Source: Gordonibacter sp. 28C (lineage in GTDB: Bacteria; Actinomycetota; Coriobacteriia; Coriobacteriales; Eggerthellaceae). Taken from it: 64,000 nucleotides of DNA. Below, in pieces: positions 7,604 to 52,925 of the stretch. The position numbers and the translations under genes were made by a program. Numbering within the stretch: position 1 is the stretch's first letter; the number at the start of each line of letters is the position of its first letter. The notes under the pieces were generated by a model. The model ran no database searches, was not told the DNA's origin, and saw only the letters and a program-made list of their open reading frames with translations. The stretch is taken from contig NZ_PPTR01000004.1 in NCBI RefSeq assembly GCF_003339845.1, forward strand, positions 167,719-231,718, given 5' to 3'.

Positions 7604-7729
7604 TTCCTCCAATTTCTCGCGCACCTGTGCGCGACCCCGGTCCAAGGGCGGAGCCCTGGCAAGCGCCGGAGGCGGGCGGGTTTCCGTCGGCGGGCTGTGC
7701 CCGGTGGCGGAAACCTGACCGCCTCCGGC

Positions 7730-7830
7730 GGCATAGTTGTACATACATCCACGATGGAGGTACAACTATGCGTCTCTTGCGAAGTTTTCAGTATCCTACC
7801 CCTATTTGCCTGTGTTTAAACCGGTTTACA
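7730..7830. promoter_or_regulatory. candidate oriT / mobC-relaxase promoter region
   Basis: 10-bp perfect inverted repeat ATAGTTGTAC…GTACAACTAT at 7733-7769 next to an RP4-nic-like GTATCCTAC. A perfect palindrome AAACCGGTTT sits at ~7816. TTTAAAC-N12-GGGTAGGATACT resembles the island promoter module. Confidence 0.3.
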
Positions 7831-13769: not shown

Positions 13770-14195
13770 CTAGAACGGGATGTCCTCGTCCGCAACCTCG
13801 ACGGCGGGAGCCTCGGGGACCGCATACTGCTGTCCACCATCAACCGCGGCAGCAGGAGACGCGGCAGGGCGGGAGTTCATGAACTCGATCTCGTCGACGA
13901 TGACCTCGAGCTTGCTGCGCTTCTGGCCGTCGCGCTCCCAGGAGCTATAGCGCAGCTTGCCCTCGATCGCGACCTTGCTCCCCTTGGAGATATAGCGGCC
14001 GACAGCCTCGGCGCGGGTGCCGAACATGGTACAGTCGATGTAATTGGGATAGTCCTCCCACTCGCCGGTCTGCGGGTTCTTTCGGCGATCGTTGACGGCG
14101 ATGCCGAACGAGAGCACCTGGGTGCCGGCCGCGGTGGCGCGGAGCTCGGGATCGCGGGTGAGGTTTCCGGTGATGTTGACTCGGTTGATGCTCAT
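13770..14195 (-). CDS. ssb: single-stranded DNA-binding protein
   Basis: OB-fold SSB signature (NRVNITGNLTRDPELR…KVAIEGKLRYSSWE) and an acidic C-terminal tip DEDIPF. Confidence 0.9.
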   Translation of the reverse strand: MSINRVNITGNLTRDPELRATAAGTQVLSFGIAVNDRRKNPQTGEWEDYPNYIDCTMFGTRAEAVGRYISKGSKVAIEGKLRYSSWERDGQKRSKLEVIVDEIEFMNSRPAASPAAAVDGGQQYAVPEAPAVEVADEDIPF

Positions 14196-19014: not shown

Positions 19015-19446
19015 TCACGCGGTCGGGGTGCCTAGGTCGGTTTCGGCCAGGACGTCGCGGATATCCGCCACATCCCTCACTGCCATGACGATGCACCTGA
19101 TCGATACCGCCGCCGCGACCACGGATGTCAGGAGGACTGCCACGCCGACGTCGTGGGCCCAGATGACAATCCCCACAGCCATAGTGATGGCGAGGCCAAC
19201 GATCCAGCAGATGAGCGCGTTGCGCGACTCGTCGAGATACGATCGCGCATAGACCTCCAAAATCTCGCGGTCGATGCCCATCTTGCCGAACCTGTCGATG
19301 TATCTGGACATCCTCGACGACATGCCGTGCTCGGTCCATGCAACCATTTTCAGAAAACCCATGGTCGCAATCGCCGCGTTGAATGCCATGGCCATGCAAG
19401 GAACCAGGTCGATATTTTCACTGATGAACGGCGCCATGCGGACCAT
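19015..19446 (-). CDS. hypothetical membrane protein (2-3 TM)
   Basis: Start MVRMAPF after GGGAGGGG. TM helices ICWIVGLAITMAVGIVIW and VGVAVLLTSVVAAAVSI. Confidence 0.6.
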   Translation of the reverse strand: MVRMAPFISENIDLVPCMAMAFNAAIATMGFLKMVAWTEHGMSSRMSRYIDRFGKMGIDREILEVYARSYLDESRNALICWIVGLAITMAVGIVIWAHDVGVAVLLTSVVAAAVSIRCIVMAVRDVADIRDVLAETDLGTPTA

Positions 19447-19469
19447 CCCCTCCCGTTTCGTCTCTATTC

Positions 19470-19530
19470 GATGTGAGTCTACCCATATGCGCATGTACGT
19501 AAACGCATAGACGCGCATATACATATATGT
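19470..19530 (-). promoter_or_regulatory. conserved island promoter/operator module, copy D
   Basis: GAGTCTACCCATATGCGCATGTACGTAAACGCATAGACGCGCATATAC, just upstream of the 19446 start. Confidence 0.5.
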
Positions 19531-19552
19531 GTGGACGTGCGAGCGGGGCGGC

Positions 19553-20110
19553 CTATTGCAGGCCCGGGTTCACGATGCAGTAGCATCGCTCCGACCTCGG
19601 CTCCTTCTCGCCGGGCGCCATCACCTTGACCGTGACCGGAACCGTCTCAGAATCGGGGGCGAACGCCGTGAACGACTTCAATTTCCCGCCCGGCTCGATC
19701 TGCTTCTGCGCCCGCTGGTCCTGCACCTTGTAGGACCTGTCGAGCTTGATCCCGTCCTGGTATGCGTTGATGTCGGTATAGGGTGCGACAGTGTCCGAGT
19801 CCGTGACGTTCTCGAAGGTATAGGCAACCCGGATGTAGCGGAACGGCTTGCCGTCCGGCCCCGTGCCTTCCTCGATCGTCACGCGGTCGATCGAGATGCC
19901 GTCCACGGACGCCTGGGCGGACTGCTGCGGCGCGAACGGCGACGAGGTGCCGGCATCGCCCGACTTCCCGGCGCCGCCGTCGGAGGAGCCGGCGTCCGGC
20001 GCCCCGTTCCTCACGCAGCCCGCGAGTCCGGTCTGCGCCGCCATGACCGCGAGGCCCACGAACGCTCGCCTCGTCATCGCCGTCATCGTATAGACATTCT
20101 TCCCCGTCAC
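19553..20110 (-). CDS. lipoprotein (signal peptide with lipobox LAGC)
   Basis: MTRRAFVGLAVMAAQTGLAGC…. GTG start with an AAGGAG RBS. Overlaps the upstream gene by 4 nt. Confidence 0.75.
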   Translation of the reverse strand: MTGKNVYTMTAMTRRAFVGLAVMAAQTGLAGCVRNGAPDAGSSDGGAGKSGDAGTSSPFAPQQSAQASVDGISIDRVTIEEGTGPDGKPFRYIRVAYTFENVTDSDTVAPYTDINAYQDGIKLDRSYKVQDQRAQKQIEPGGKLKSFTAFAPDSETVPVTVKVMAPGEKEPRSERCYCIVNPGLQ

Positions 20111-20931
20111 CTGTGAATCTCCTTTATGCTCTTCAAAATGGGGGCGGTGCAGACGCGGTGCCGAGTCTCACGTATCGCAGCGCGCCCGGCCTCGTCCTGC
20201 ATGAGCTTCGGTCTCCCCTCGCGAAAGGCCGCGGCCCTTCTCGCCGCCGCGGCGAATTTCCGCTCGGCCTCGTCGAAGTCGATATCGCGCCACGCGCGAT
20301 CCCCGCCCGTGCCGGATATGAAAACCGACGGCACGACATGGCTGCTGTCCGCATAGTCCGCCGGGACGGACATCTCCGCATAGCCCGACGGCTCGCTGCC
20401 GTTCGGCAGCCGGTACACGACGAGCTCCTGCTTCCTGCGTTTGCTCACACGGCGCTCGCACAGCTCGGGATGGAACGCCTCGTACGCCATGGCGCTATAT
20501 GGGGAGCAGGAGAAGCGGTACTCGAATAGGCATTCCGCTTCCCTCCGATGCCGTTCCGCCTCCTGCACCCGGGTCGCAGCCTGCGCCCGGATCCGGTCGC
20601 GCTCGGCCGCCTCCTCGGGCCCGAGCTCGCGGAACGCCCCGACCACGGCGGCCTCGTCCAGGGCGAAGAACTCCGTCTCGCGGGCGTAGGCGCCGGTGTG
20701 GTGCCAGGACGAGTAGGCGATGAACCGGTCGAAGAGCGCAGCCTTGGTCTCGGACTCGACCGCAGGGTCGTAGAGCAGGTCCATCTCATCGCAGTAGCCC
20801 CTCAAGGCGCCGAGGATCGCCGCCTTGGTCCATTTCGAGCGGGGCATCTCCCCCGCCTCGTAGGCCGCCCGCGCGTTCACGCTCATGGAAGCGCCGCTGT
20901 ATCCCTTTTGCCCGTAGGCCACCCTAGACAT
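20107..20931 (-). CDS. hypothetical protein
   Basis: 274-aa protein-like ORF. A degenerate island promoter (CAGCTGGGACGGTACACAT) lies upstream. Confidence 0.6.
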   Translation of the reverse strand: MSRVAYGQKGYSGASMSVNARAAYEAGEMPRSKWTKAAILGALRGYCDEMDLLYDPAVESETKAALFDRFIAYSSWHHTGAYARETEFFALDEAAVVGAFRELGPEEAAERDRIRAQAATRVQEAERHRREAECLFEYRFSCSPYSAMAYEAFHPELCERRVSKRRKQELVVYRLPNGSEPSGYAEMSVPADYADSSHVVPSVFISGTGGDRAWRDIDFDEAERKFAAAARRAAAFREGRPKLMQDEAGRAAIRETRHRVCTAPILKSIKEIHR

Positions 20932-21129
20932 GTCCGACCTTTCGCGCGGATGTGTACCGTCCCAGCTGTTTCTACCCCGTGCGCGGGAAGTCTTTCACTC
21001 GATTCGAGCCGGTGCGGGGGCATTTTTATCCGTCGAGTTTCGGTAGGGGCGTGTAAAGCGCGGCGGGGGCGGGTATCAAAGCTGCTGTGTATGCCAATTC
21101 CAATAAAGAGGTGGTCCATGTCCGACCCG

Positions 21130-22320
21130 ATCGCCGCGGCCGAAGCCGCCGGCAAAGCCCGCGATATCGCCAACCGCTTCGAGACCGCCGTATTCCTCAT
21201 CGCATACGGCATCGCCGAGAAGGACGGCCTCTACGAGGCCGACCCGCATAGGTATCCCTACAGCCAGGCATTCAGACACGGCATGAATATCCTCGCCGCG
21301 CTGTGCGCTGAGTGCTCCGACGATGCGGAAAAGCTGCTGCCGACGTTCAATGAGTCCGATTTCATCAGGAACAGCGCAGCGTCAGACGTGCGCGAGTGGA
21401 CGGCCCGGTGGCGCGACGAGTGCAGGAAAGCCGTCGAAGGGTGCCGGTCCATCGAGATCGGGCCCCTGGCGTCAGTAGACGGCGACTACTTCGCCGCGAC
21501 GTCGGAATGCTACGAGGTGCTGCGCTTTGCGGAAAACGACCTCTTGGGCGGCCATCAGGAACGCAGGGTGTATGAATTCCTCCGAGCCGGCACCCAGGAT
21601 CAATACGTGTACGGACGCAGGATGCTCATCCGCCACCCGCTGCTCACCTGGAACGAATACGTCAGGATCAAGACGGGGCTCGCCCTGGGCGACCCCGACC
21701 CCCTCGACCAGGGCGAAGCCGACACCATCGACCCGGTGTGGTTGCAGGAATTCGTCTCCATGGCCTACGAACCCGTCCCGGGCGCCGCAAAAGTATGCCC
21801 GAATTGCGGCTGGACGATGACCATGCGAGGCAAGCAGCCCCACTGCTCATCGGCGACGTGCGCCAAGGCCGTCACAGGCGATTTCGACAAGCTGGACAGC
21901 GTCGCGCACGACGCCTTCCGCCTATCCCGCGGCGTCATGCACTACATCTCTTCCCCCGGAAAGCTCGAGCTGGCGATCGCCGAGGCCGCAGCGGGCCTCG
22001 GTCTGAAATACGAAATGTGGCCCCTCAAGGACACCTGCGACATCCTGATCCATCTGCCGGACGGCCGACAGCTTGCCGTCGACGCCAAGGCATACGGCCG
22101 CGCCGAGCGGCTTGCCCGCGAGATAGAGGACGACACCGGCATCGCCCAGATGTGCGCGGACGAGGTGGCCTATGTCGTGCCGGACCAAGTCGAACGGGAC
22201 CATCCCGGATATCGCGCGCTATGCAATGCCGTCCTGCGCGGCAAGACCGGCTATTCATGCGAAACGCTGCGCAACTTCTCGAAACGACTCGATGCCGCCG
22301 CGAAGGGAGGCACGCGATGA
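21130..22320 (+). CDS. Zn-ribbon protein with PD-(D/E)xK-like nuclease motif; candidate pPIWI-RE-associated REase
   Basis: True start MSDPIAAAEAAG (AAAGAGGTGG RBS). CPNCGWTMTMRGKQPHCSSATC zinc ribbon. C-terminal …DTCDILIHLPDGRQLAVDAKAYGR… fits D…(D/E)xK. Its stop overlaps the next gene's start. Confidence 0.6.
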   Translation: MAAAEAAGKARDIANRFETAVFLIAYGIAEKDGLYEADPHRYPYSQAFRHGMNILAALCAECSDDAEKLLPTFNESDFIRNSAASDVREWTARWRDECRKAVEGCRSIEIGPLASVDGDYFAATSECYEVLRFAENDLLGGHQERRVYEFLRAGTQDQYVYGRRMLIRHPLLTWNEYVRIKTGLALGDPDPLDQGEADTIDPVWLQEFVSMAYEPVPGAAKVCPNCGWTMTMRGKQPHCSSATCAKAVTGDFDKLDSVAHDAFRLSRGVMHYISSPGKLELAIAEAAAGLGLKYEMWPLKDTCDILIHLPDGRQLAVDAKAYGRAERLAREIEDDTGIAQMCADEVAYVVPDQVERDHPGYRALCNAVLRGKTGYSCETLRNFSKRLDAAAKGGTR

Positions 22321-25300
22321 ACGAGCCGAATGATACAGCCCAGGAAGGCTTCGACCAGCTGAAGCGCAATCTCGAGGTGCGCTATCCCGAGGACAGCGAC
22401 CTATCCCTCGACGAGTTCCTGAATGTGGAGTCGCTGCTCGCGCTCGCGGTACGCGTATGCGGTCCCGGCGCCGATCCCCGAAAGGCCGACAGGCTCCTAT
22501 CGAACTACCAGCTCATCAGGCCCGAGACCATCGGCGCGGACGGCCACCTCATGCAGATGGCGCGCCGACACCTGTTCTCGCTGGCTTCATCCACGGCCTG
22601 GCGGCGACTGCTGGGCCTCTACGAGCGCGCGGAATATGAGCGGTACCGGTTCTTCGATATCGCCGACGGCGGAATGGCCCTGCGCGAGCACCCCCTTACC
22701 GGGATCGACCGCATGCCGATCTATATAGACCGCCTCCTCGGCGATGTCAAACTCTCCCATAAAAACGTGGTCGCGAGACCCAAAGGACGGTATTCCTACA
22801 CATGCAAGCCCGAGGCGACCGGCGATACCACGGTAACCGGATCGATCCGTTGGGTGACCATACCCGATGCCGTGCCGCCCCAAACGGGCAAGATTGACGA
22901 TATCCCCCGCAAGAGCAGGCGCCCGCCCATCGATATCACCCTCGACGAGCTCATCTCGACCGCGGACGAAGTCGGGGAGAAGACCGGAAAGACCCACTAC
23001 GCTGCCGTGCTCAGAAGGGTCAAGGACCAGGGGCTCCTCAAGCAGGCCGTCGGCGGCAGCACATCCGTCGCCGACGGCCTGCGCCTCGATGAGGTCGTGA
23101 GCCTCGTCGGCCTCGTCGGCGCCGGCAAGTCCGTCCTCGCCAACATGCTCATCGTCTGCCTCGCGAAGCGCGGCCTGCGCGCGGTATCCCTGCTCAACTC
23201 GGTATCGGACGTGATGGAAAGCGTCGTCCTGCTTCGCGAGGCGGGAATCAGCGCCTCGCCCCTGGTGTCGCGCGGCAGGCGCATCGAACGGCTCGACGAG
23301 TTCTTCGACCACGATGACTCCATGCTCCTCGGCCATTCCGCATCCAAATACCTGGAGACCGCCTGCATCATGGACGGGCTCTCCTCTTCCGATTCCGAGG
23401 CCTGCGGATACGGCAGCACGCCATGCCGCGGCCTCCGGTCCAAGAAGGGCGGCGCGAACTCATGCCCGTACTGGGACGTGTGCCCATCGCAGGCCATGGC
23501 CCGCGAGTCCCTGACATCCGACGTCGTGGTCACGACTCCCACCGGCTTCGCCACCATGATCGTCGGAAGGGAGCGCAAGGCATTCTTCGAGGAGGCCCTT
23601 CAGCAGTTCGACGTCGTCCTGTTCGATGAGGCGGACCGCGTGCAGGCGCAGCTCGACGGCTGCTTCGCCCCTAGCATGAGCTTCCAGGAGCTCATCCGCA
23701 ACGCCGCCGACCCGACAGCCGCAGCCATGAAGCGGCGCCCGGACGACAAGATGAGGGACTTCAACGAGGAGCTTTTCTACGACCTGCGCCAGAAATCCGA
23801 GCCCGTCGCGAAGGCGCTGCTCAAATCCGTCAGGGACGACCGCGTGGCGAAATGGCGCATCGTCAAGGACGAGGCGTTCACGTCACTCTCGCTTCTGAAC
23901 GACCTCCTGGAGCAGGGCCTTCCCAAACAGGTTTACGAGGATGCCGACAAACTCATCAACCCCTATAGATTCGAGATTGCCAAGAAGAGCCTCGATGGCG
24001 GCGATGCGGCCCTCAACAAGCTCTCGCAGGCGGTCGCGACCTCCTGCGAGGGCATCGACGACGACACCCACAGCTACTCGTTGAACGAATACCTCGCTGC
24101 ACGCGGATGCTCGGAGCTTCCCGACGAGCTGCGGACCAGGTTCTCCTTCGCCCTCAAGGTCATCCGGTTCGACTCGTATCTGCGCGAACTCGCCTCCGCG
24201 CAGGACCTCCTCAGCTTCAAGGACGATTCCGTCGACGAGCTGTACAACTTCCTCAAGTTCAGCTACACGCGCCAGCAGCACTATCTCCCCAACTCGCTGA
24301 TCGGCAACATCTTCGGGATGAAGCTCGACGGCAACGACCTCAGGCTTTTCCGGCAGTTCGCCTTCGGGCGGGCCTTCATGTGCTCGCTGCCCTGGCTCGA
24401 TACCGACCCCGCCGGGGCGGCGCTGGGGCCGCACGTGCTCCTGCTCTCCGGTTCGAGCTGGGAGCCCGGCTGCCTGCAATACCACGTGAACAGGCCGGTC
24501 GACTACCTCCTCGAGGCGGAGCCGTGGAAGGCGGCCAAGCTCTCCACCTCGACCGTGAGGGACCTCGGCATCGAGCAGAACGTGTCCGGCAGCGCCGCCG
24601 AGATGCGTTCCGGCAACCTCGGCATCGTCCTATCCCAGACCATGGCCACGCTGAGGGACGAACTCGACGCGGATGGCGCGGGAAAGGCCCTGGTCATCGT
24701 GAACAGCTACCGGGAGGCCGAGGACGCACGCGACCGCATCGAGCAAGAGTTCCGACGCAAGGGCCAGGCAATCAAGGTCGCGGCCCTGGTGCGCAACAAC
24801 CACGAGCACAGGGAGCACTTCGTGCCCCGGAGCGAAGTCTACAAGTTCTGCGATCATCCGGCCAAAGTGCTCGTGGCGCCGGCCATGGCCATCGAGCGCG
24901 GATTCAATATCGTCGACCGCGGCGGCCATGCCGTGTTCACGAGCCTCATCTTCTCGGTGCGCCCGATGGGCACACCGCACGACCTCGGCGGGCGATACCG
25001 CAAGCTCAACGGCCTCATCGAAAGGGAGGTCGGCGACTACCCGGCCAATCCCGGGGAGTTCGCGACCGAGGTCAGGGCCTCCGCCTGGCGCACATGGAAG
25101 ACCATGGAGCGGGACGAGAACCTTCCCATGGGCGCATGGAGGACCATGGGAAGGCAATTCCTCGTAGACGACGCGATCTCCACGCTCATGGTCACGATCA
25201 TCCAGATATTCGGGCGCCTGGCGAGGCTTGCCGATAAGGAGAGGCCCGCGCCGCATGTCTATTTCGCCGATGCGGCCTTCCGCGGCGGCGACGGGAAGCT

Positions 25301-25439
25301 CTCGTTCAGGACCCTGGAAGAGCTTGGCGCCTACATGGAACGCCTCATGCACGATAGCGACCAGCCGGAGGTCGCCAAAGCCCTTTACGGGCCGTTCTAC
25401 GAGTCATTCAGGAAAGGAATCGGAAATGTCGGACTCTAA
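22317..25439 (+). CDS. DinG/XPD-family superfamily-2 helicase with Fe-S cluster insertion
   Basis: Walker A GLVGAGKS and Cys cluster C-x13-C-x6-C-x12-C-x5-C between the motifs. VVVTTPTG, DEAD box (VLFDEADRV). 1041 aa. Start ATGA overlaps the upstream stop. Confidence 0.85.
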   Translation: MNEPNDTAQEGFDQLKRNLEVRYPEDSDLSLDEFLNVESLLALAVRVCGPGADPRKADRLLSNYQLIRPETIGADGHLMQMARRHLFSLASSTAWRRLLGLYERAEYERYRFFDIADGGMALREHPLTGIDRMPIYIDRLLGDVKLSHKNVVARPKGRYSYTCKPEATGDTTVTGSIRWVTIPDAVPPQTGKIDDIPRKSRRPPIDITLDELISTADEVGEKTGKTHYAAVLRRVKDQGLLKQAVGGSTSVADGLRLDEVVSLVGLVGAGKSVLANMLIVCLAKRGLRAVSLLNSVSDVMESVVLLREAGISASPLVSRGRRIERLDEFFDHDDSMLLGHSASKYLETACIMDGLSSSDSEACGYGSTPCRGLRSKKGGANSCPYWDVCPSQAMARESLTSDVVVTTPTGFATMIVGRERKAFFEEALQQFDVVLFDEADRVQAQLDGCFAPSMSFQELIRNAADPTAAAMKRRPDDKMRDFNEELFYDLRQKSEPVAKALLKSVRDDRVAKWRIVKDEAFTSLSLLNDLLEQGLPKQVYEDADKLINPYRFEIAKKSLDGGDAALNKLSQAVATSCEGIDDDTHSYSLNEYLAARGCSELPDELRTRFSFALKVIRFDSYLRELASAQDLLSFKDDSVDELYNFLKFSYTRQQHYLPNSLIGNIFGMKLDGNDLRLFRQFAFGRAFMCSLPWLDTDPAGAALGPHVLLLSGSSWEPGCLQYHVNRPVDYLLEAEPWKAAKLSTSTVRDLGIEQNVSGSAAEMRSGNLGIVLSQTMATLRDELDADGAGKALVIVNSYREAEDARDRIEQEFRRKGQAIKVAALVRNNHEHREHFVPRSEVYKFCDHPAKVLVAPAMAIERGFNIVDRGGHAVFTSLIFSVRPMGTPHDLGGRYRKLNGLIEREVGDYPANPGEFATEVRASAWRTWKTMERDENLPMGAWRTMGRQFLVDDAISTLMVTIIQIFGRLARLADKERPAPHVYFADAAFRGGDGKLSFRTLEELGAYMERLMHDSDQPEVAKALYGPFYESFRKGIGNVGL

Positions 25440-27951
25440 GCTGCACCTCATGTCATTCGCACCCGTCCCCGACACCAAGACGACCGTGCACGTCGTCGGC
25501 TTGCCCGACAGCCTGCGCGACGCCCTCTTCACGCTCATGCCCCCGAGGAAAGAGGGCGGCTACCTCAACACCAAAGTCCTTAAGGACGACCTGCGCTGCT
25601 GGCTCGACCGGGCCGTCGAGCTGAACCCCGTACGCCCCAACGTGCATACCGACAGCTGGCTTATCGCCCTCGCCCCCATTGATCTCGCGAAGCTATGCAA
25701 CGTCATCGCGGTCTGGATCTCCTCCCGCAAGGACATCGATACCCAATCCCCCGCCTATTGCAAGGTGATGGGGATGCTGCACCCCGAGACGTTCGAAGAG
25801 GCCGTGCATGGCGAAGAGACCTGCCTGTTCAGCGGCGACGGCCGTCCCACGGGCAGGCTCACCTTCCCCGCATTCTCCGCGCAAGTCGCCGACGCCATCG
25901 CCGACATCCCCCTCGAACTCGCCAACGGCATGGTCGAGAACTTCAGCAGAGTCTCACGCGGAAACGGAAACGTCTACGAGCTGATTTCCGATATCCACTG
26001 GCACAAGGAGGACCCGTGGGCGTTCGCCCTCAGATTCCACGTCGAGACGCTGCCGGTCGGCCGCAAGGCAAGGCTCAACATGGATGTTGCCGTCCGCCGC
26101 TTCATCGGCAAGCCATGGCAGGACGACCCGTTCCTCAAACACGATGTCAACGCCTACGTCCGCACGGAAGGCGGCACGCTCCGCGTCGTCCCCTACGGCT
26201 ACGACAAACAGAAGCGCGACTTGGCCTGGGACCCCGCGGCCCTGGCGAACTACGAGTTCGCCAGGGGGACCGGATTGCCCGCAGTCCGCGAGTATCTTGA
26301 GGACATGGGCAGGTACGCCCGCGACGGTTCGCAGCCGCAGATCCTATCCCCCTACGCGATGACCGCCTCCTGGGCATCGAAGCCCTCGGTCGCAAGCGGG
26401 GCATCCGTCATCGACAAGGCCATGTTCTTCGAGGCCGTCGCGGCTCGGCTTAAAGATATCGCGGAGCCCGTCGGTGCGCTCGACTCGCTTCAACTGACCC
26501 ATCTCAAGGCGTCCATAGAGGAGCCCAGGCAGGCGGATTGGGACAAGGACCCCGTCGGCGCACGGGCGAGACAGGAGGCCTGGGGCCGGGCCAACCGCGC
26601 CAGACTCGCCCGCTGCACCGGCAGGGACAGGGCCGTATTCCAGCTGATCGGCAACCAGGACGATGCCCGGCTCCTCGGTATGGCAAGGGCCGAGATCTCC
26701 CGCTTTCTCGGTGGGGAGGGGGCCGTCGACGGCTTCGAGGTCAAGATCGATAACATCCCGGCAAACGACCTCCTGAACCGCATGGAGAATACCGGCGACA
26801 GCCAGGCGAAGATCCGCTGGCGCAAAGTCGCCGCCGCGCTTCCCGAGGCGACCGACCCGACCGCGTGCATAGTGGTCCTGCCGGGCGCCGAGAGCTACAA
26901 GCCCAAGGGCAAAGACGACGGCGGAGACCCCAAGCGCGCCCTGCGCATCGCGTTCGCGAAAACCGGGCGCCTGACCCAATTCATCGAACCCGAGGACTCG
27001 AAGGACGGTCCCGAGATCCGCGCGCGCGTCGCCGTCCGCGACCTCATGCGCCAGCTCGGTTTCGTACCCGAACCGGCACGCAATTCGCGCGGCATCGATA
27101 CCTCGATCCCGGCGATAGGGTTGAAGGTCTACAACTCCGGCAACGGCAAGGCGCGGGCGAGCTTCCCCTATTGCGTCCGACAGGACATGAGAAGCGGTGC
27201 CGTCACCGTGTACTGCCCCCTCCTACCTGACGGAAGCCTACCGTACTGGCGCGCCCTCATCGAGTTCGCCCGGCTGAGCGGTTCCGAGGGCTTTCCGGAC
27301 TCCTGCAAGCGGGCGAACGGAATGGCCCTGAAGAGGATGCTCCACGGCATAGTCCGCGCCACCGGCGACAGGCCGGAACTCCTCCTCGTCAACTCCTACG
27401 GCCGCATCCGCCAGAGAGACTGGTGGCCCGGCATCAGCGACTCCGGCCTCGAGTCGGGACCCTTGAGCTACGGACCGACCGGTTATGAGGAGCCGCTTGA
27501 CCTCGCGGGCAGCAAGCTGCGCATCCTGCGTATACGCTCCGGTCTCAACGGCGAGGTCCCCGACTGGTTCACGGACGAGGTGGCCGCGGGCGGCGCAGAC
27601 GACGGCACCGTGCCGAACAGGCGCGACAAGCAGGGACTCTTCAAGATGGACGGCTACTTCCTCGCGTTGGCCCCGCGACCGGGCGACGCCCAGTACAAAT
27701 GGTCCGCACGCGGATCGAAGTACGATTCGCCCACCGCGGCGTTCTGCGAGAAGACGATCAACGAGTACTGCCTTCTGTCGCCCGGTGGCGAGGCCGAGGC
27801 GCTTGCCAGCGTCAAATACGCCGAGGCCCTGCGCGGCTGCATGGTGCAGCTCTACAAGAACGATATGAGGGTGAACCTTCCCGCCCCGCTCCATCTCGCC
27901 GAGCAGGTCGAGGAGTATATCTGGGACTGGGAGCTCACCGGGAGACGATAG
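25426..27951 (+). CDS. large (841 aa) protein, third gene of operon; candidate pPIWI-RE (prokaryotic PIWI-like) module protein
   Basis: AGGAAAGGAA RBS. Overlaps the helicase 3' end by 14 nt. No nucleotide-binding motifs. Size and position match the pPIWI-RE protein of the REase-DinG-pPIWI_RE operon. The assignment rests on operon architecture, not on motifs read directly. Confidence 0.55.
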   Translation: MSDSKLHLMSFAPVPDTKTTVHVVGLPDSLRDALFTLMPPRKEGGYLNTKVLKDDLRCWLDRAVELNPVRPNVHTDSWLIALAPIDLAKLCNVIAVWISSRKDIDTQSPAYCKVMGMLHPETFEEAVHGEETCLFSGDGRPTGRLTFPAFSAQVADAIADIPLELANGMVENFSRVSRGNGNVYELISDIHWHKEDPWAFALRFHVETLPVGRKARLNMDVAVRRFIGKPWQDDPFLKHDVNAYVRTEGGTLRVVPYGYDKQKRDLAWDPAALANYEFARGTGLPAVREYLEDMGRYARDGSQPQILSPYAMTASWASKPSVASGASVIDKAMFFEAVAARLKDIAEPVGALDSLQLTHLKASIEEPRQADWDKDPVGARARQEAWGRANRARLARCTGRDRAVFQLIGNQDDARLLGMARAEISRFLGGEGAVDGFEVKIDNIPANDLLNRMENTGDSQAKIRWRKVAAALPEATDPTACIVVLPGAESYKPKGKDDGGDPKRALRIAFAKTGRLTQFIEPEDSKDGPEIRARVAVRDLMRQLGFVPEPARNSRGIDTSIPAIGLKVYNSGNGKARASFPYCVRQDMRSGAVTVYCPLLPDGSLPYWRALIEFARLSGSEGFPDSCKRANGMALKRMLHGIVRATGDRPELLLVNSYGRIRQRDWWPGISDSGLESGPLSYGPTGYEEPLDLAGSKLRILRIRSGLNGEVPDWFTDEVAAGGADDGTVPNRRDKQGLFKMDGYFLALAPRPGDAQYKWSARGSKYDSPTAAFCEKTINEYCLLSPGGEAEALASVKYAEALRGCMVQLYKNDMRVNLPAPLHLAEQVEEYIWDWELTGRR

Positions 27952-27975: not shown

Positions 27976-28000
27976 GGGAGGCCGAATCTCCCGGCCTCCC
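27976..28000. terminator. bidirectional terminator between convergent genes
   Basis: GGGAGGCCG-AATCTC-CGGCCTCCC followed by TATTTCC. Lies between the 27951 and 28009 stops. Confidence 0.6.
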
Positions 28001-28008
28001 TATTTCCG

Positions 28009-29859
28009 CTATCCCTGCCGCCAATTCGCCTTGCGGGTCTTTCGACCGGCGGCGGTGGACCCTTTCGCCACTCCCTTCCGCTTCCCAGGACGGGAGCCGG
28101 ACGAATTCGATTGACGACGGGTGGAGCCCAAGTCGAAGCCGGAGTTTTTCGCGATCCGCGCCTCGACCTCGGAACGCCGGATGCCCAGTTCCGATGCGCT
28201 GACGCGATAACCGCCCTCCTTGCGGACGACATAGAGCTCATGTGGGTCGTAGTCCCAATCGAGTACGTACCCGGCAAGGAGCATCTTGGCATCCAGATGG
28301 TCCTTGGACATCGCGCCGGAGAGCGCATCCTTGAGGGCGAAGGTGGCTCGAGTCACGATATCCGCCCGGATCTTCTCCTCGAGGGTTCTAGCCGGCCTTT
28401 CGGTCCCCGGTTCCTGGGTACCTCCCTTGCTGTTCTCCAGGGCGCCTTCCAGGGCGAGAGGCGTGGGGGCGTCGGGGCCCCTGCCGTCCATGAGGTCTCG
28501 GATGTAGGCGCGGACCCGCGACTCGTAGCGGCGCGGGCACTCGATTTGGACCGGCTCCTCCATCCTGTGCTCGAGGGAATCGTAGAACTCCACGACCTCG
28601 CGGCTGGCGATCAGGCGGTTCGGCTCGATCTTGGGGAACACGGTGAGGCCGGCGGCGGAGCGCACGCGGGACAGGCCGACGTACAGCTGGCCCTCGGCGA
28701 AGACCTTCGTGTGGACGCAGCAGGCATCGAACGTCAGGCCCTGCGACTTGTGGATGGTGATGGCGTAGGCGAGCTTGAGCGGGATCTGGGTATAGGTACC
28801 CACGACGGCGGTCTTGACCCTGTTGACGGGCCTGCCCTCCTCGTCCATCTCGACGATGGCCTCGGACTTGTTGATCTCCCATCTATGCCGCTCGATGCTG
28901 ACCTTCTCGTCCGCGCCGTCGAACTTGACCGTCACGGCGTCCGCGGACGCGTCGGTGACGGTGCCCTGCGTGCCGTTGACGTAACCCTCCTGAGGGCTGT
29001 TCACGAGCGACATCACGCGGGCGCCGCGGCACAGGACGATCCTCTCCGGCGCCATCTTGTCGCCGTTTGACACCGTGCCTGTCGCGGCGGCCGCGAACTC
29101 GACCTTCGGGGCGTCGAGCGCGTCGACGTTCTCGCGGTTGATCGAATCGGCGATGCGGTTGTTGGCACACAGCACCAGCGTGTCCTTCGGCAGGTAGGCA
29201 CGGGAGCTCTTCGAGTGCGCGTTGAAGTAATCGAGGCACGACGCGTCGCCGACGCGGGCGCGGTTCAGGTTGTCGATGAAATCGGGGTCGGATTGGCGCA
29301 CGACCGTCTTGAGGACGTGCGGCTCGAAATCGAAGCCGGTCCAGTACCTCGACTTGAAGCACCAGCCCTGGAGGTTTCCGGGATAGAACTTCATCAGCAG
29401 CGCGGAGTCGCGGTCGGTCACGACCGGCGGTAGCTGGAAGAAGTCGCCGACGAGGACCACCTGCTTCGCGCCGTTGCGCGTCATGGACTGGGAGATCATC
29501 CCCATCACGTGGTCGAACAGGTCGATGCGGCACATCGAGATCTCGTCGATGATGATTACCTTCGCGGCGTCGAGCACCTTGCGGGACCCCTTGGGGCCAT
29601 CGGGGGCGCAGACCCCCGGCGCGATTTTCAGCGTGCGGTGGATCGTCGAGCCGTCCGTGAGGTTCAGCGCGGCGATGCCGGTGGGCGCCAGGGCGAGGAA
29701 ATCGACGTTGCGCGCCTTCAGGTCCGATATGAAGGCGTTGAGCACGTAGCTCTTACCCGTGCCGGCGTTGCCCGAGAGAAACACGTTCCTCCCGTCCCTC
29801 AGCGCCCTCAGCGCCTCGGCCTGCTCCGGTGTAAATCGGTCACCGTCTGCCATTTCCAT
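28009..29859 (-). CDS. Pif1/RecD-like superfamily-1 DNA helicase (TraA/RecD2-type)
   Basis: Walker A LSGNAGTGKSYVL, Walker B VIIIDEISM, motif AITIHKSQGLTFD. Basic Ser/Arg/Lys-rich C-terminal tail. Confidence 0.9.
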   Translation of the reverse strand: MEMADGDRFTPEQAEALRALRDGRNVFLSGNAGTGKSYVLNAFISDLKARNVDFLALAPTGIAALNLTDGSTIHRTLKIAPGVCAPDGPKGSRKVLDAAKVIIIDEISMCRIDLFDHVMGMISQSMTRNGAKQVVLVGDFFQLPPVVTDRDSALLMKFYPGNLQGWCFKSRYWTGFDFEPHVLKTVVRQSDPDFIDNLNRARVGDASCLDYFNAHSKSSRAYLPKDTLVLCANNRIADSINRENVDALDAPKVEFAAAATGTVSNGDKMAPERIVLCRGARVMSLVNSPQEGYVNGTQGTVTDASADAVTVKFDGADEKVSIERHRWEINKSEAIVEMDEEGRPVNRVKTAVVGTYTQIPLKLAYAITIHKSQGLTFDACCVHTKVFAEGQLYVGLSRVRSAAGLTVFPKIEPNRLIASREVVEFYDSLEHRMEEPVQIECPRRYESRVRAYIRDLMDGRGPDAPTPLALEGALENSKGGTQEPGTERPARTLEEKIRADIVTRATFALKDALSGAMSKDHLDAKMLLAGYVLDWDYDPHELYVVRKEGGYRVSASELGIRRSEVEARIAKNSGFDLGSTRRQSNSSGSRPGKRKGVAKGSTAAGRKTRKANWRQG

Positions 29860-30923: not shown

Positions 30924-31301
30924 CTAGAAGAATATAAGCCAGATCGTACCCAAGAGCAGGGAGACATATCCCACAGCGGTCACGAGGAAGTCTATGAAGG
31001 CGAGGGCCGCGGCAGTATCGACCCGGATGCCACAGGGAGCCAAGTTCGATGCGAACCCATGCAGGGGATACATGGCACAGATGAGGCATATCGATTCGAG
31101 ACCTGCCGCCAACAGGGGATTCACCTCCGCCAGCTCCCTCGGATAGAACAAGCCCATCAGGACGGAATCCGCCACCAGCGCCGCCCAAATCAGGAACACG
31201 CCGACCTTAAATGCCTTGGTGTCCTCGACCCATGCCAGGGGCATCATGCAGCCGAAGAAATCGAGCAGCAAGGCCGAGGCGATCAGCGGGACGACCATCA
31301 C
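30924..31301 (-). CDS. small polytopic membrane protein
   Basis: 125 aa, 4 predicted TM helices. Overlaps the flotillin stop. Confidence 0.6.
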   Translation of the reverse strand: MMVVPLIASALLLDFFGCMMPLAWVEDTKAFKVGVFLIWAALVADSVLMGLFYPRELAEVNPLLAAGLESICLICAMYPLHGFASNLAPCGIRVDTAAALAFIDFLVTAVGYVSLLLGTIWLIFF

Positions 31302-32704
31302 TCCACCGAGTTCTCGGCGGAGTCGGCATCGATATCGGGGTTCGAGATCAGGCCGTTCAGCAGGGACGGCAGGTCGATTCCCGTGCTGTCCTTCAGGCCG
31401 GATGCGACCTGGTCGACAATCGATGTGGTCTCCTTTACGAGTTTTTGCGCGTTGCCCGATCCGTACATCTTGATGGAATCGACGGCAGTGAGGGGCTTCG
31501 CAACCTGCTCGGCTACCTTGGGCATGATGTCGATGTAGCGGTTGGCGAGCAGGTAGGGGTTATCCATGCCGTTGTACGCCTCGGCCTGGGCCTTGATGCT
31601 CGCCGCGACGCCCTCTCCGTGCGCCTTCTCGGCCGCACCCTCGGACTCGCCCTTCAGTCGCGTGGCCTCGGCCTCGGCGGTAGCCTTCGCCTTGATGCCC
31701 TCCGCGTCCTTCTGGGCGGAATACAGTTCGGCATCCGATTCGTTCTGGCGCTCGATACGGGCGGCCTCGGCCTGCTTCGTGCGCTTGTAGAGGTCGGCTT
31801 CCGCCGCCTGCTCGGCGGCATAGCGGTCGGCCTCAGCCTGCTTCTTCACGGTCGCGTTCAGCTCGCGCTCCCTCACGTCCGCCTGGCGCTCGGCGAGCTC
31901 GACCTTCTTGGTCTCCGCGGCGATCTCGGCCTCCTGCTGGGCGATGTAGAGCTCGCGCTGCTTCTCGGCCGTCACGGTGGCCTTCACCATATCGGCCTCG
32001 GCCTTCGCCTTGTCGGCCTGCTTCTTGAGGTCGGCCTGCTTCAAGTCGAGCTGGTTCTGGCGGATGGCGACCTCCTCGGCCGCCTTGATCTGCGCCAGCT
32101 CGGCCTCCTTCTTGATCTCCGCGGCCTGGTCGGCGCCCATGGAGCGGATGATGCCCTGGGAGTCGGAGAAGTCCTGGACGTTGAAGGTGCGCAGCTCGAG
32201 GCCGAGGTTGGCGAGGTCGTCCTTGGAGCCGTCGAAGACCTTGGCATTGAAGCTCTCGCGGTCGCGCATGAGCTCCTTGAGGTCCATCTGGCCGATAACC
32301 TCGCGCATCTTGCCCAGCATGACCTCGGTGACCTGTCGGGTCATCTCCTCCTTGTCCATATTCAAGTAGTTCTTGGAGGCGGTCTCGATCAGCTCGGGGG
32401 TCTGGCCGATCTGGAAGTTCGCCACGGCGCAGGCGTGGATGAGGATTGCGTCCTGCGTCGGGATATCGTTCTCGGTGGTCAGCTGCACCTGTACGGCACC
32501 CAGCGAGAGGGTGTCGACGCGCTGGAGGAGCGGGATCACGAAGGTGCCCTTGCCGGAGACGGAGCGCATCTTGCCGGCGCCGGAGACGATCATGAGCTTA
32601 TCCGGCGGGCATTTGCGCCAGCAGCTCTCGAACACCAGCACGAGAACCATGATACCGACGGCTGCGGGGAGCAGGTTGAAGATCAAAGATTCGAAAAGCA
32701 TCAT
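31298..32704 (-). CDS. flotillin-like SPFH/band-7 protein (YqiK/FloT-like)
   Basis: N-terminal TM, then an SPFH domain and a very long Ala/Glu/Lys-rich coiled-coil (EAEL…KAAEE…). GAAGGGAAGG RBS. Confidence 0.9.
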   Translation of the reverse strand: MMLFESLIFNLLPAAVGIMVLVLVFESCWRKCPPDKLMIVSGAGKMRSVSGKGTFVIPLLQRVDTLSLGAVQVQLTTENDIPTQDAILIHACAVANFQIGQTPELIETASKNYLNMDKEEMTRQVTEVMLGKMREVIGQMDLKELMRDRESFNAKVFDGSKDDLANLGLELRTFNVQDFSDSQGIIRSMGADQAAEIKKEAELAQIKAAEEVAIRQNQLDLKQADLKKQADKAKAEADMVKATVTAEKQRELYIAQQEAEIAAETKKVELAERQADVRERELNATVKKQAEADRYAAEQAAEADLYKRTKQAEAARIERQNESDAELYSAQKDAEGIKAKATAEAEATRLKGESEGAAEKAHGEGVAASIKAQAEAYNGMDNPYLLANRYIDIMPKVAEQVAKPLTAVDSIKMYGSGNAQKLVKETTSIVDQVASGLKDSTGIDLPSLLNGLISNPDIDADSAENSVE

Positions 32705-35625: not shown

Positions 35626-36657
35626 TCATCGCCCGGCCCCCTCGGCATCGCAGGGCGCCATGCGGCGGTCCGGGCCGTCCATCTTGACGCGCTCGGTCAT
35701 CTCGGCCAGGCGCGAGACGATAGCCAGGGCGTCCTCCTTGCGGCCGTACTCCGACAGCACCGCGGCGAGGCCAGCCTGGGTGTACTGGCTTGTCACGATC
35801 GTGGCGCGCTCGGCCTCGTAGCGGCCGTTGACGATCTGGAACAGCTTCGCGAGCACCCACTGGGTCGAGGAGTCCTTGCCCAGGTCGTCGATGATCAGGA
35901 TCGGGACGTTCACGTACCTGCGGATTACGTCGGCCTCGCTGTCGCCGCCCTTGTCGAAGGTCGAGCGGAGCTCGGTCATGAGGTCCGCCGAGACGACGAA
36001 CCTGACGCCGTGCTTGGGCCTGCCCTTCGGGACGGGCCGGTACGCCCAGTTGCCGAAGCGGGGATCGAGGCGCGAGCCGGCGTAGTCGTAGGCGATACGG
36101 CACGCCATCTCGGTCTTGCCGACCCCGCGCGGACCGTAGATGTACAGCCCGCCGCCGTGCGCGAGGCGCGCGTCGTAGGCATGCTCCGGGGCGGCCACTC
36201 CCTCGGCGATGCGGCGGGCGAAGCGCGGCGGGATGCCGGTCTTGCGCACGACCGCCTCATGGAACGCGGGATCGGTCGCGGCGAGGGCGGCTACGTCCGC
36301 AATCTCGAGCGGAGGCAGGGCGCCGCCGACGGGAAGCGGCGCGGCTGTTGCAGCCGGGGCCTCGGGCACGGGCGCCGCTGGCACCGGAGTCCGAACGGGC
36401 GCCGCGGCGGGGGCCGGGTGCTCCGGCTCGAGGTAATGCGGCCCCATCTCGTGCCACGCGTCCGCCTCCGCCCTCCAATCGAGCACCGGCGTGCCGTCCG
36501 CGCGCCGCCAGGCGCGGGCATCGTGGTATGCGTAGAAGAAGTTGCCGTAGAAGGCGTTGACGGAGCCGCGGTCGTCGTAGCCCTTCCCGCGGACGTAGGC
36601 CTCGACTTCCTCGAGCGCGGGCCTTTTCGGCCTCGCCTGCGCTTGCGTGTCGTTCAT
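35626..36657 (-). CDS. DnaC/IstB-like AAA+ helicase-loader ATPase
   Basis: Walker A YIYGPRGVGKTEMA, Walker B ILIIDDLGKD. GGAGGGAG RBS. Lies 20 nt downstream of the rep gene stop. Confidence 0.85.
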   Translation of the reverse strand: MNDTQAQARPKRPALEEVEAYVRGKGYDDRGSVNAFYGNFFYAYHDARAWRRADGTPVLDWRAEADAWHEMGPHYLEPEHPAPAAAPVRTPVPAAPVPEAPAATAAPLPVGGALPPLEIADVAALAATDPAFHEAVVRKTGIPPRFARRIAEGVAAPEHAYDARLAHGGGLYIYGPRGVGKTEMACRIAYDYAGSRLDPRFGNWAYRPVPKGRPKHGVRFVVSADLMTELRSTFDKGGDSEADVIRRYVNVPILIIDDLGKDSSTQWVLAKLFQIVNGRYEAERATIVTSQYTQAGLAAVLSEYGRKEDALAIVSRLAEMTERVKMDGPDRRMAPCDAEGAGR

Positions 36658-36679: not shown

Positions 36680-38068
36680 CTAATCGTCGTTGAACTCGCT
36701 GAAATCGCTGTCGGCGGCCACGCGCTCGGCGACGCTCATGGCCCTCTTCGCGCCAGACGGGCCGGACTTACGGGCGGAGCGCGGCGCGGGCTTGCGGCGC
36801 CAGGTGTTCACGACGTTCTTCCATCGGACGATCGGCACGCCGCCCGCGCGGACCCAGCCGGTGGCCTCGTAGTAGTCGAAGAACTCGTCGGGGTCGATCA
36901 CGCGGTAGGCGGGATTGTCCGGGTCGGGGGCGTCATAGCCCTTCTCGTGCACGTACTTTCGGACCTGCTCGCGGGTCGGCGCCTTCGACGGGGCGGCCTT
37001 CTCCTCGGCTGCGGCCACGGCGCCGGAATCGACGAGATCGGCCCTCAGGTCGTAGAACCTCAGGCCGTTTCCGGCGGCGAGGAACTTGGGCAGCGACATG
37101 ATGTAGCGCCCGTCGGTGTGCGATGCCGCGTACTCGCGGCGGTAGGTGTCGTAGGCGCGACCGATGCGCGGAAGCGTCCAGCCGTCCGCGAGGGCGCGGG
37201 CATAAGCCTCGGCGACGTCGGCGAAGACCTCCGCCTTGCCGATGGACATGCGCATGAGGGCAAGCACCTCGGCGTTTGGGACCGGGACCTCCGTCTCGAG
37301 CCCAAGGCCGGCCTCCGATGCGACCCTCACGACCGTGACCGAGTCGCCCGCAGCCTTCGACATGACCGGGTCTTCGACAGACGGCAGCGCGCCCGCGCGC
37401 CCTCTCCCACTAACATCAATAACAACATCCTTGTTAGTGTCGCAAAAATTGGTACACGGTGAAATCGTTTCCCCAGTTGGGCCCGTGTACCAATTTTTGG
37501 TACACGGTGAATCTAGTTGCAAACTAACGTTAGTTTGGTCGCCCGTGTACCAATTTTTGGTACACGGCGAATCCTGCGGGTTGTTGATAACCTCGTTTTC
37601 AACCCCCTCCCCCGGCAAGTTTTCAACAGCGCCCGCCCCAGTCGATTTCGAGTTATCGACAGGCACGAAACGGCGCTCCTCGGGGATCTCGGCATTGACC
37701 ACGTAACGGTTCGAGAGATAGCGCCCTTGGCCCTGCGCGCGGCCCTGGTGCACGCTGATGTAGCCGCACTCGACCAGGGTTCGGCGGTGGCGGTAGTAGG
37801 TGTTGCGCGACATCGCGAGGTGGGTGCAGATCGTGTCCACGGACGGGAACAGCGAATGGGTGCCCGCGCCGGCATGGGCGCAGAAGTAGGCGTAGACGCC
37901 CTTGGCCGACGACGACAGGCGGGTGTCCTCGGTCGCCTTGGCCGAGACGATGCCGAAGCCGCGCTCCATGAGGTCGCCGCCGAAGACGACGACCGCGCCG
38001 TCGCGGTCCAGGATCTCGAACGTCTCGTCGAGCTCGTCGCGGGTGCGGCCGGCGGGCTGTGCCGCCAT
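36680..38068 (-). CDS. replication initiator protein with N-terminal winged-HTH (DnaD/RepA/phage O-like)
   Basis: ATG with an AAAGGAG RBS (MAAQPAGRTR…). wHTH KGVYAYFCAHAG…DTICTHLAMSRNTYYRHRRTLVECGYISV. The central linker is encoded by iteron DNA (SPCTKNWYTG repeats). Confidence 0.75.
   Translation of the reverse strand: MAAQPAGRTRDELDETFEILDRDGAVVVFGGDLMERGFGIVSAKATEDTRLSSSAKGVYAYFCAHAGAGTHSLFPSVDTICTHLAMSRNTYYRHRRTLVECGYISVHQGRAQGQGRYLSNRYVVNAEIPEERRFVPVDNSKSTGAGAVENLPGEGVENEVINNPQDSPCTKNWYTGDQTNVSLQLDSPCTKNWYTGPTGETISPCTNFCDTNKDVVIDVSGRGRAGALPSVEDPVMSKAAGDSVTVVRVASEAGLGLETEVPVPNAEVLALMRMSIGKAEVFADVAEAYARALADGWTLPRIGRAYDTYRREYAASHTDGRYIMSLPKFLAAGNGLRFYDLRADLVDSGAVAAAEEKAAPSKAPTREQVRKYVHEKGYDAPDPDNPAYRVIDPDEFFDYYEATGWVRAGGVPIVRWKNVVNTWRRKPAPRSARKSGPSGAKRAMSVAERVAADSDFSEFNDD
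37440..37570. repeat. iteron/palindrome cluster inside rep gene: candidate origin of replication
   Basis: Two perfect 25-bp palindromes CCGTGTACCAATTTTTGGTACACGG (37483-37507, 37543-37567) plus a half-site at 37445-37460. An 18-bp palindrome CAAACTAACGTTAGTTTG sits at 37517-37534. Further IRs (CACTAACA…TGTTAGTG) lie at 37410-37440. Confidence 0.55.
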
Positions 38069-38084
38069 GCCGCGCTCCTTTGCG

Positions 38085-38453
38085 CTACTCACGGCACTGC
38101 ACCCCCTCCCGCACGACCTCGGCGGGGATCGGGACCATGCAGAGCTCCCCGTCCCGGTCCTCGCCGTAGGGCGTCACGATGTCGACGATGTAGCCGCCGC
38201 GCTCGAGCGCGGCCAGCGCCTCGTCGTAGTCGCGGCGCGGCAGGCCGGCCTCGGCCGCCGCGATGTCGCGCGCCGGGCACTCGATCGCCACCGACATGGG
38301 ATCGCGCGCCACGATGCAGCAGAAGACCGACTTCTGCTCGAGCGTGAGGTCGCCGTCGTCGAAGATCGGGCGGATACGCCGCGCCCAGAACCTATCGCCG
38401 ACCGTCATCCTCGCCGTGCCGGCCTGATTCCCGGCGGAATCTTTCCTTCCCAT
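38085..38453 (-). CDS. hypothetical protein (122 aa)
   Basis: Start MGRKDSAGNQ after GGAGGGA. Immediately upstream of rep. Confidence 0.55.
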   Translation of the reverse strand: MGRKDSAGNQAGTARMTVGDRFWARRIRPIFDDGDLTLEQKSVFCCIVARDPMSVAIECPARDIAAAEAGLPRRDYDEALAALERGGYIVDIVTPYGEDRDGELCMVPIPAEVVREGVQCRE

Positions 38454-41919: not shown

Positions 41920-42009
41920 CGTCTCAGCTTCTCTCGTACGCTTCGTCGGATCGGCGTTTTCCGCCTTAATTGAGGGCACCATGCTAGCATAATGTCAAGG
42001 CAAAAAACG

Positions 42010-49680: not shown

Positions 49681-49696
49681 GATTCGCACCCCCTTC

Positions 49697-52738: not shown

Positions 52739-52925
52739 GTCTCCTCCTAAGATGGTATCAGGGCATTTCGCATCGTGTCTGCGAAGTTGGAACCTCGTCT
52801 GGACGGCCGTTGCGCAGTCAAGCGCACTCCCCCTGCGATCGATTCCCCCTGCGGCACGACTCGTGCGAGAATGCCTTTCTATCCCTCGTGAGAATTGGCC
52901 AAATTCTTCTTCCTGCACTATACGA

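Follow-up and report, generated by a model that had tools for sequence, protein, structure and literature searches.

What system do three overlapping genes for a nuclease, a helicase and a large third protein form in an island of Gordonibacter sp. 28C, and how might that system act? The genes occupy positions 21118-27951 on the plus strand of a 64,000-nucleotide (nt) stretch of contig NZ_PPTR01000004.1 (RefSeq assembly GCF_003339845.1, positions 167,719 to 231,718), which was analysed as a whole and is called the window here; they are translationally coupled and encode proteins of 400, 1040 and 841 residues (genes 1, 2 and 3). A first-pass annotation of this DNA had proposed a candidate pPIWI-RE (Argonaute-like) defence system. 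It is near certain that the triad is an intact, canonical pPIWI-RE three-gene system, the 'argonaute type III' of PADLOC, and the agreement of motifs and profiles is far beyond chance, with E-values that reach 1e-143. By analogy, the triad would best be explained as a nucleic-acid-guided interference system, a three-gene counterpart of DdmDE, a reading to which we assign a probability of roughly 0.6.

In 2013 Burroughs, Iyer and Aravind defined the family together with its arrangement in three genes and predicted an R-loop-directed, RNA-dependent restriction (PMC3702460); PADLOC now lists PIWI-RE systems as type III beside the long-A, long-B, short and SiAgo-like prokaryotic Argonautes (pAgos) (PMC11333966). 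The earlier presentation of the class as a prediction almost uncharacterised by experiment was an overstatement: the class has entered both Pfam and PADLOC, and one PIWI-RE protein has been characterised biochemically (PMC10991935). With the class already catalogued, the find in the window is an ordinary annotation, which standard Pfam and PADLOC runs would label.

The operon and its three proteins

The operon, its domains and its motifs lie as follows, in window positions.

21105-21114, plus strand: purine-rich ribosome-binding site AAAGAGGTGG of gene 1, as read from the sequence, 3 nt upstream of the ATG at 21118
21118-22320, plus strand: gene 1, pPIWI-RE-associated restriction-type nuclease of 400 residues, with domain Y, a zinc ribbon and a PD-(D/E)xK restriction endonuclease (REase) domain
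21796-21861, plus strand: zinc ribbon of gene 1, C227/C230/C243/C248, all four cysteines invariant in the alignment of relatives
21958-22311, plus strand: REase domain of gene 1, residues 281-398, a Pfam match, with invariant E284/E289, D308 and D322-A-K324
22317-25439, plus strand: gene 2, DinG/XPD-type superfamily 2 (SF2) helicase with an N-terminal Z domain, 1040 residues
22395-22877, plus strand: Z domain of gene 2, residues 27-187, a Pfam match
23109-23132, plus strand: Walker A motif GLVGAGKS of gene 2, residues 265-272 (G265-x-x-G268-x-G270-K271), invariant in relatives
23364-23483, plus strand: cysteine-rich insert of gene 2, C350/C363/C370/C383/C389, between Walker A and Walker B, the site of the XPD/DinG 4Fe-4S domain
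23625-23636, plus strand: Walker B motif DEAD of gene 2, residues 437-440, with D437, E438 and D440 invariant
25203-25226, plus strand: helicase motif VI QIFGRLAR of gene 2, residues 963-970, with Q963, G966, R967 and R970 invariant
25426-27951, plus strand: gene 3, pPIWI-RE Argonaute-like protein of 841 residues
25453-26622, plus strand: domain X of gene 3, the N-terminal lobe, residues 10-399, a Pfam match
26812-27075, plus strand: MID domain of gene 3, residues 463-550, from a Pfam match and the family alignment
27115-27927, plus strand: PIWI/RNase H domain of gene 3, residues 564-834, which holds D587, E613, D672, H823, R702/R704 and E780
27976-28000, no strand assigned: GC-rich hairpin between gene 3 and the convergent Pif1/Dda-like helicase gene

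The tight coupling claimed for the operon is borne out at both junctions, the ATG of gene 2 sharing bases with the TGA of gene 1 in an ATGA overlap and genes 2 and 3 overlapping by 14 nt. Two details of the first reading needed correction. Gene 1 had been started at 21130, where the in-frame codon is ATC, the real start being the ATG at 21118, 12 nt upstream and preceded by AAAGAGGTGG; and the operon had been called the only one of the island on the plus strand, where small genes are also called at about 16.0-18.2 kb. The lengths of 400, 1040 and 841 residues match gene calls on dozens of independent contigs. No promoter was found upstream of gene 1 by a sigma-70 consensus scan, and the hairpin at 27976-28000 is, judging by its sequence, likely a bidirectional terminator.

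Gene 1 matches the Pfam model pPIWI_RE_REase at 8.9e-28, above the curated cut-off, and the PADLOC model PprRE at 2.5e-24. Motif invariance in genes 1 and 2 was judged in alignments with relatives at 47-77% identity, and in these the zinc ribbon and the D...D-A-K nuclease motif that the first reading had picked out (D308...D322-A-K324) are kept without exception. Domain Y stays below the Pfam cut-off in this copy (pPIWI_RE_Y at 0.0057, 17.5 bits vs 26.7) and reaches 3.6e-08 in relatives of gene 1. The linker before the zinc ribbon contains a 24-nt tandem repeat (21679-21733; 2.3 copies, 80% match).

Gene 2 is matched by pPIWI_RE_Z at 1.1e-34, above the curated cut-off, and in PADLOC by PprDinG at 2.6e-95 and typeIV_DinG at 1e-08; NCBIfam, which holds no family-specific model for pPIWI-RE, gives a weak YoaA match only (4.5e-06). 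Walker A, the DEAD box and the five cysteines first noted are all present, four of the five (C350, C370, C383 and C389) staying unchanged throughout 21 sequences, the most distant at 34% identity, and C363 being kept in closer relatives. These four invariant, correctly placed cysteines predict a 4Fe-4S site. An AlphaFold2 (AF2) model of gene 2 (predicted local distance difference test (pLDDT) score 80.2, predicted template modelling (pTM) score 0.83) is nearly all-helical from about residue 456 to 654, a large helical insert, and is of low confidence in the cysteine insert (pLDDT 53-62, residues 321-370). Its 39 best Foldseek matches are XPD, DinG, CasDinG or DdmD structures (E 3.8e-11 to 5.6e-06), which place the helicase by structure within the XPD/DinG clade, as had been proposed.

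Gene 3 matches three Pfam models above their curated cut-offs (pPIWI_RE_X at 3.6e-66, MID_pPIWI_RE at 2.2e-18 and RNaseH_pPIWI_RE at 6.8e-44), and PADLOC PprPIWI matches it at 3.1e-143 over residues 1-840, so that the REase, Z, X, MID and RNaseH models and all three PADLOC models agree on the class first suggested. Pfam Piwi and PAZ give no match at E <= 1, its Argonaute likeness being structural only, and none of the three proteins has a relative in the PDB by sequence or profile search, including a search with a 100-sequence family profile. The gene 3 model, built from a 100-sequence alignment, is of very high confidence (pLDDT 94.7, pTM 0.93), and all 50 of its 50 best PDB Foldseek matches are full-length Argonaute/PIWI proteins (E 2e-15 to 1.6e-11, 8-13% identity); structural alignments of the whole protein to long Argonautes exceed 900 columns. 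The PIWI assignment, formerly drawn from context, can thus be read from the fold of the protein itself. Neither outcome that would have overturned the first reading, a gene 3 lacking both fold and family profile or a helicase outside the DinG clade, was obtained. Its model has the bilobed architecture with MID and PIWI of the long-A pAgos CpAgo, MjAgo, TtAgo and KmAgo, with which slicer activity is also probably common. Unlike these remote structural relatives, the pPIWI-RE family has a distinct N-terminal X domain and obligate helicase and nuclease partners, and, unlike classical pAgos, an extra helix after the first beta-meander (PMC3702460), for which helix 607-618 stands in the gene 3 model.

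Set beside the described pPIWI-RE system (PMC3702460; PF18154/PF18156/PF18155/PF13111/PF18157/PF13032), the window triad has the same gene order (REase, DinG, PIWI-RE), the same overlapping ends and the same domain set (Y, zinc ribbon and REase; Z and DinG with cysteine-rich and helical inserts; X, MID and PIWI), and we see no architectural difference from the class. Three traits are particular to the window copy: its D-E-D-H set is probably complete, as in only part of the family; it sits on a mobilisable element spread among gut Coriobacteriia; and its domain Y scores below the Pfam cut-off. No methyltransferase domain was found in any called neighbour within +/-10 kb of the triad.

Guide pocket and candidate active site

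Residue counts across the family come from an alignment of 112 diverse full-length members. The MID pocket is near-invariant family-wide (D501-P-K503, R507, R515, Q518, F519, D539 and R542-Q543). The conserved arginine and glutamate ("RE") that had been sought in the PIWI domain are R702 and R704 (109/112 each) and E780 (111/112), and gene 3 has all three; E710, E830 and H823 (98/112) are also near-invariant.

Two further columns are kept only by a subset, a distribution that would be expected of catalytic residues: position 587 is D in 50, E in 17 and N in 15 of the 112 members, and position 672 is D in 66 and N in 45. Both are read as candidate catalytic positions. The E613 column is E in 51. 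The combination in gene 3, D587/E613/D672/H823, is the commonest single pattern (17/112), and with this putative catalytic set gene 3 is probably slicer-competent. A catalytic aspartate had at first been placed on strand 563-570 (K567), a column that is acidic nowhere in the family; D587 and D672 fit instead.

PsPIWI-RE of the proteobacterium Pseudomonas stutzeri belongs to the same family and also lies beside genes for a DinG helicase and a nuclease; it was studied as a single protein, without its partners (PMC10991935). Given RNA guides it cuts DNA, and given DNA guides it cuts RNA; the substitutions D525A and D610A abolish this activity, and R639A and E718A do not (PMC10991935). Compared by spacing alone, its D525-D610-R639-E718 series (85, 29 and 79 residues apart) parallels D587-D672-R702-E780 of gene 3 (85, 30 and 78). 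None of the family proteins retrieved here showed the residue numbering of PsPIWI-RE.

The mobile element, relatives and variant alleles

The block from about 4000 to 39300 has the appearance of a mobilisable element that has integrated and that brings a replication module of plasmid type. The genes named here include a single-stranded DNA-binding protein (SSB), one of two SSB-like genes in the element overall.

4928-6988, minus strand: MobA/VirD2 relaxase
6990-7748, minus strand: NikA-like protein
13770-14195, minus strand: SSB
19015-20931, minus strand: three-gene unit, divergent from gene 1 (169 residues; 185 residues with DUF5067; 274 residues)
28009-29859, minus strand: Dda/Pif1-like helicase
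31298-32704, minus strand: flotillin
35626-36657, minus strand: IstB/DnaC-like ATPase
36680-38092, minus strand: replication-initiator-like HTH_36 protein
In related loci: ParA

More than 22 kb around the operon are 94-99% identical in Gordonibacter pamelaeae, Eggerthella sp., Collinsella aerofaciens and several Collinsella metagenome-assembled genomes, and such identity across genera marks the block as a recently spread mobile element. Gordonibacter, Eggerthella and Collinsella are human-gut bacteria. The element that carries the triad as cargo thus belongs to gut Coriobacteriia; it bears a relaxase and is of the self-replicating type. The exact Pif1 protein occurs with the triad in eight of eight contexts. 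The right edge of the element appears to lie near 39.3 kb, as judged from one locus; a left edge, an integrase, a tRNA and attachment repeats were not found in the loci examined, and the relaxase-centred loci stop short of the operon. The unit at 19015-20931 accompanies the triad on all contigs of the element and is absent from distant triads, and is probably unrelated cargo. Exact proteins are indexed in 396 data blocks for the relaxase, 122 for Pif1 and 51 for gene 3.

To the right of the element, the minus strand encodes (at 40450-41982, 43519-45147, 48457-52918, 53398-54795 and 58080-59378) a GGDEF cyclase, an Ada/AlkA fusion, NrfD and molybdopterin oxidoreductase subunits, an HTH/HipA-like protein and an AAA_14/DUF4143 ATPase. 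An oxidoreductase-rich gene content is typical of Eggerthellaceae.

This setting bears on the target of the system. The triad might serve the mobile element itself, excluding rival plasmids or integrative elements or stabilising its carrier, with phage defence secondary or absent. That reading would fit the position of the triad within an element with a relaxase, NikA, ParA, SSB, HTH_36, a DnaC/IstB-like ATPase and a Dda/Pif1-like helicase, the near-identity of this element across three genera and the unbroken association with the exact Pif1 protein, and DdmDE, the nearest mechanistic analogue, removes plasmids. However, more distant triads sit in unrelated chromosomal neighbourhoods without the element, and among the 72,556 plasmids of PLSDB neither the operon (megablast) nor gene 3 (tblastn) finds a match. 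As a rival we consider it unlikely; it bears mainly on what is targeted and could hold together with the mechanism of the guided-interference reading.

Beyond the element, the gene order with its abutting or overlapping ends is kept in relatives at 64%, 48% and 42% identity (loci L019, L020 and L021), whose neighbourhoods are unrelated to the window locus and hold, respectively, HipA-coupling and WCX-domain proteins, a type I HsdR with transposase fragments, and AbiEi/AbiEii. A defence role would fit the mobile element here and these toxin-antitoxin, AbiE and type I restriction-modification neighbours in relatives. The family is rare: 298 relatives at E <= 0.001, and 165 at E <= 1e-10, were found among 1.84 billion 50%-identity cluster representatives. 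This copy is abundant in metagenome assemblies: clustered at 90% identity, the full-length forms gather 4671 sequences for gene 3 and 4135 for gene 2, and most variant clusters hold 1-3 sequences.

Genes 2 and 3 are under purifying selection, with ratios of nonsynonymous to synonymous substitution rates (dN/dS) against the copies of other genomes of 0.20-0.29 and 0.25-0.34; gene 1 has too few changes for an estimate. Between element copies, dS is 0-0.011 for gene 1, about 0.02-0.027 for genes 2 and 3 and 0.01-0.04 for the upstream 274-residue gene, all from small counts; the low value of gene 1 may come from a recombination event or a sweep that passed over it recently.

Variant alleles are many among copies that are 97-99% identical. 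In-frame deletions in gene 3 remove residues 339-432, 347-413, 170-244, 273-374, 350-467 or 470-533. A deletion of 96 codons (the 745-residue protein P0007) stands on 19 contigs with intact genes 1 and 2, the three shown coming from different samples; its junction (~26433 / ~26721) lies in the 8-nt direct repeat GGCCGTCG, which suggests a microhomology-mediated deletion. In other variants, large deletions join the N-terminal part of gene 2 to the C-terminal part of gene 3, or internal deletions of gene 2 take away residues 257-361/365, with Walker A and the cysteine insert, or residues 626-781; a recurrent allele diverges after gene 1 residue 317 and reads into gene 2, giving a 1440-residue product without D322-A-K324. 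Some of these fused, internally deleted or read-through forms may be assembly artefacts. On one metagenome contig, gene 2 is broken into pieces of 79 and 960 residues. The proteins with the fused, internally deleted or read-through forms are P0030, P0035, P0036, P0040, P0068, P0250, P0251, P0201-P0205, P0214, P0216-P0225 and P0241.

Such deletion, fusion and frameshift alleles in near-identical copies could be taken to mean that the triad is a decaying, non-functional relic passively carried on the element, and the substitutions in gene 1 are too few to demonstrate constraint. In the window, however, all three frames are intact and every motif, the catalytic ones included, is present; full-length clusters outnumber the variants by thousands of sequences to 1-3 for most, and genes 2 and 3 evolve at a dN/dS of 0.2-0.34. 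We regard decay as very improbable.

A guided-interference model and its rivals

Domain composition, folds, motif integrity, coupling, gene order, purifying selection and neighbourhoods of mobile or defence type are observed directly; the model built on them combines these data with DdmDE. In DdmDE of Vibrio cholerae, guide-loaded DdmE binds plasmid DNA and loads a DinG/XPD-like helicase onto the non-target strand, and this helicase, with a C-terminal PD-(D/E)xK nuclease, moves 5'->3' (10.1101/2024.05.10.593530). DdmDE has two genes, one for the helicase-nuclease fusion and one for a long-C pAgo without the DEDX tetrad. The window triad has the same three modules, but spread over three polypeptides: its nuclease is a separate first gene, its helicase keeps the Fe-S cysteines and gene 3 probably keeps D-E-D-H. 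The structural match of DdmE to gene 3 is weaker than the long-A Argonaute matches. Type IV-A CRISPR-Cas likewise uses a DinG-type effector helicase in a nucleic-acid-guided module, and CasDinG (Csf4) structures match gene 2 (E about 1e-09); unlike in Type IV-A, the guide-binding protein of the triad would be Argonaute-like rather than a Cascade-like complex. A tandem-repeat scan of 3-41 kb found no CRISPR or other repeat array, the neighbours have no Csf or Cas domains, and no Rfam family was found in 15-40 kb, nor a guide-source locus nearby.

Under the guided-interference reading, gene 3 would grip the 5' end of a short guide in its MID pocket, and the guide would pair with invading DNA or its transcript, an RNA/DNA hybrid being preferred. 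Target binding would recruit the Fe-S helicase, gene 2, and load it onto the displaced strand, along which it would translocate 5'->3' and feed DNA to the PD-(D/E)xK nuclease, gene 1, which would nick or cut the invader. Gene 3 may itself slice the paired strand, since the probable D-E-D-H set is kept. For this mechanism by itself, in which the use and type of guides, the target, the sequence of steps and the formation of a physical complex are all inferred, we would put the odds at about even.

The original 2013 proposal offers a guide-independent alternative, in which PIWI-RE senses RNA-DNA hybrids or R-loops, DinG unwinds or translocates and the REase cuts the exposed DNA; there, DinG helicases are described as acting on RNA-DNA duplexes and R-loops (PMC3702460). 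It would account for the absence of a guide-generating locus, array or RNA family near the triad (Rfam, 15-40 kb; repeats, 3-41 kb), and PsPIWI-RE works solely on RNA/DNA hybrid combinations (PMC10991935). The same protein speaks against it in another respect, its cleavage being programmed by 21-nt guides of which at least 10 nt are needed (PMC10991935); moreover, no part of the family is better conserved than the MID-pocket residues that would hold the 5' end of a guide (D501, K503, R507, R515, Q518, R542 and Q543), and the structurally related DdmE uses guides. We hold guide-independent restriction to be rather doubtful.

Several points weigh against guided interference. The catalytic assignment in gene 3 derives from conservation patterns and the spacing of PsPIWI-RE rather than from residue-level superposition, and in the model D672 lies 16 residues past strand 651-656, off the classical end-of-strand position. 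The helicase is frameshifted in two of nine species-representative genomes, near residue 190 in Gordonibacter pamelaeae CCUG 55131 (L001) and near residue 512 in L008, and since such frameshifts and many deletion alleles circulate, the system is dispensable and possibly costly. A whole-word literature search from 2019 onward returned no experiment on any complete pPIWI-RE triad, and the literature and structure libraries searched held neither a solved structure nor an in vivo demonstration of defence for pPIWI-RE. Finally, sensitivity to ciprofloxacin, not defence, is the one phenotype that has been reported in vivo for a protein of the PIWI-RE family (PMC10991935).

That phenotype leads to the remaining alternative, namely that the triad does housekeeping work in replication or in the processing of the chromosome, for instance by resolving replication intermediates or by helping cells to tolerate topoisomerase poisons, as has been suggested for PsPIWI-RE and some pAgos: deletion of piwi-re makes P. 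stutzeri about 15-fold more sensitive to ciprofloxacin and filamentous (PMC10991935). DinG-family helicases act in replication and repair, and the weak YoaA match of gene 2 would be in keeping with this. A housekeeping function sits poorly, however, with a patchy and rare distribution (298 clusters among the 1.84 billion), with carriage on a horizontally spreading element, with recurrent loss or inactivation in near-identical copies and with the defence or toxin-antitoxin neighbours of relatives; we judge it improbable.

A fuller version of the guided-interference reading may be sketched, if tentatively: the triad would be a split, Fe-S-bearing, slicer-competent counterpart of DdmDE, used by the mobilisable element against rival plasmids or elements in gut Coriobacteriia, and the lesion alleles would reflect autoimmunity or a fitness cost. 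The pPIWI-RE systems are one of five recognised groups of prokaryotic Argonautes. The window copy, with intact genes and motifs, a probable catalytic set, a high-confidence model of gene 3 and abundance in metagenomes, makes a good experimental entry to them, and the structural links of the helicase to DdmD and of gene 3 to DdmE support a DdmDE-like working model and yield a concrete, testable scheme for the handover from Argonaute-like protein to helicase.

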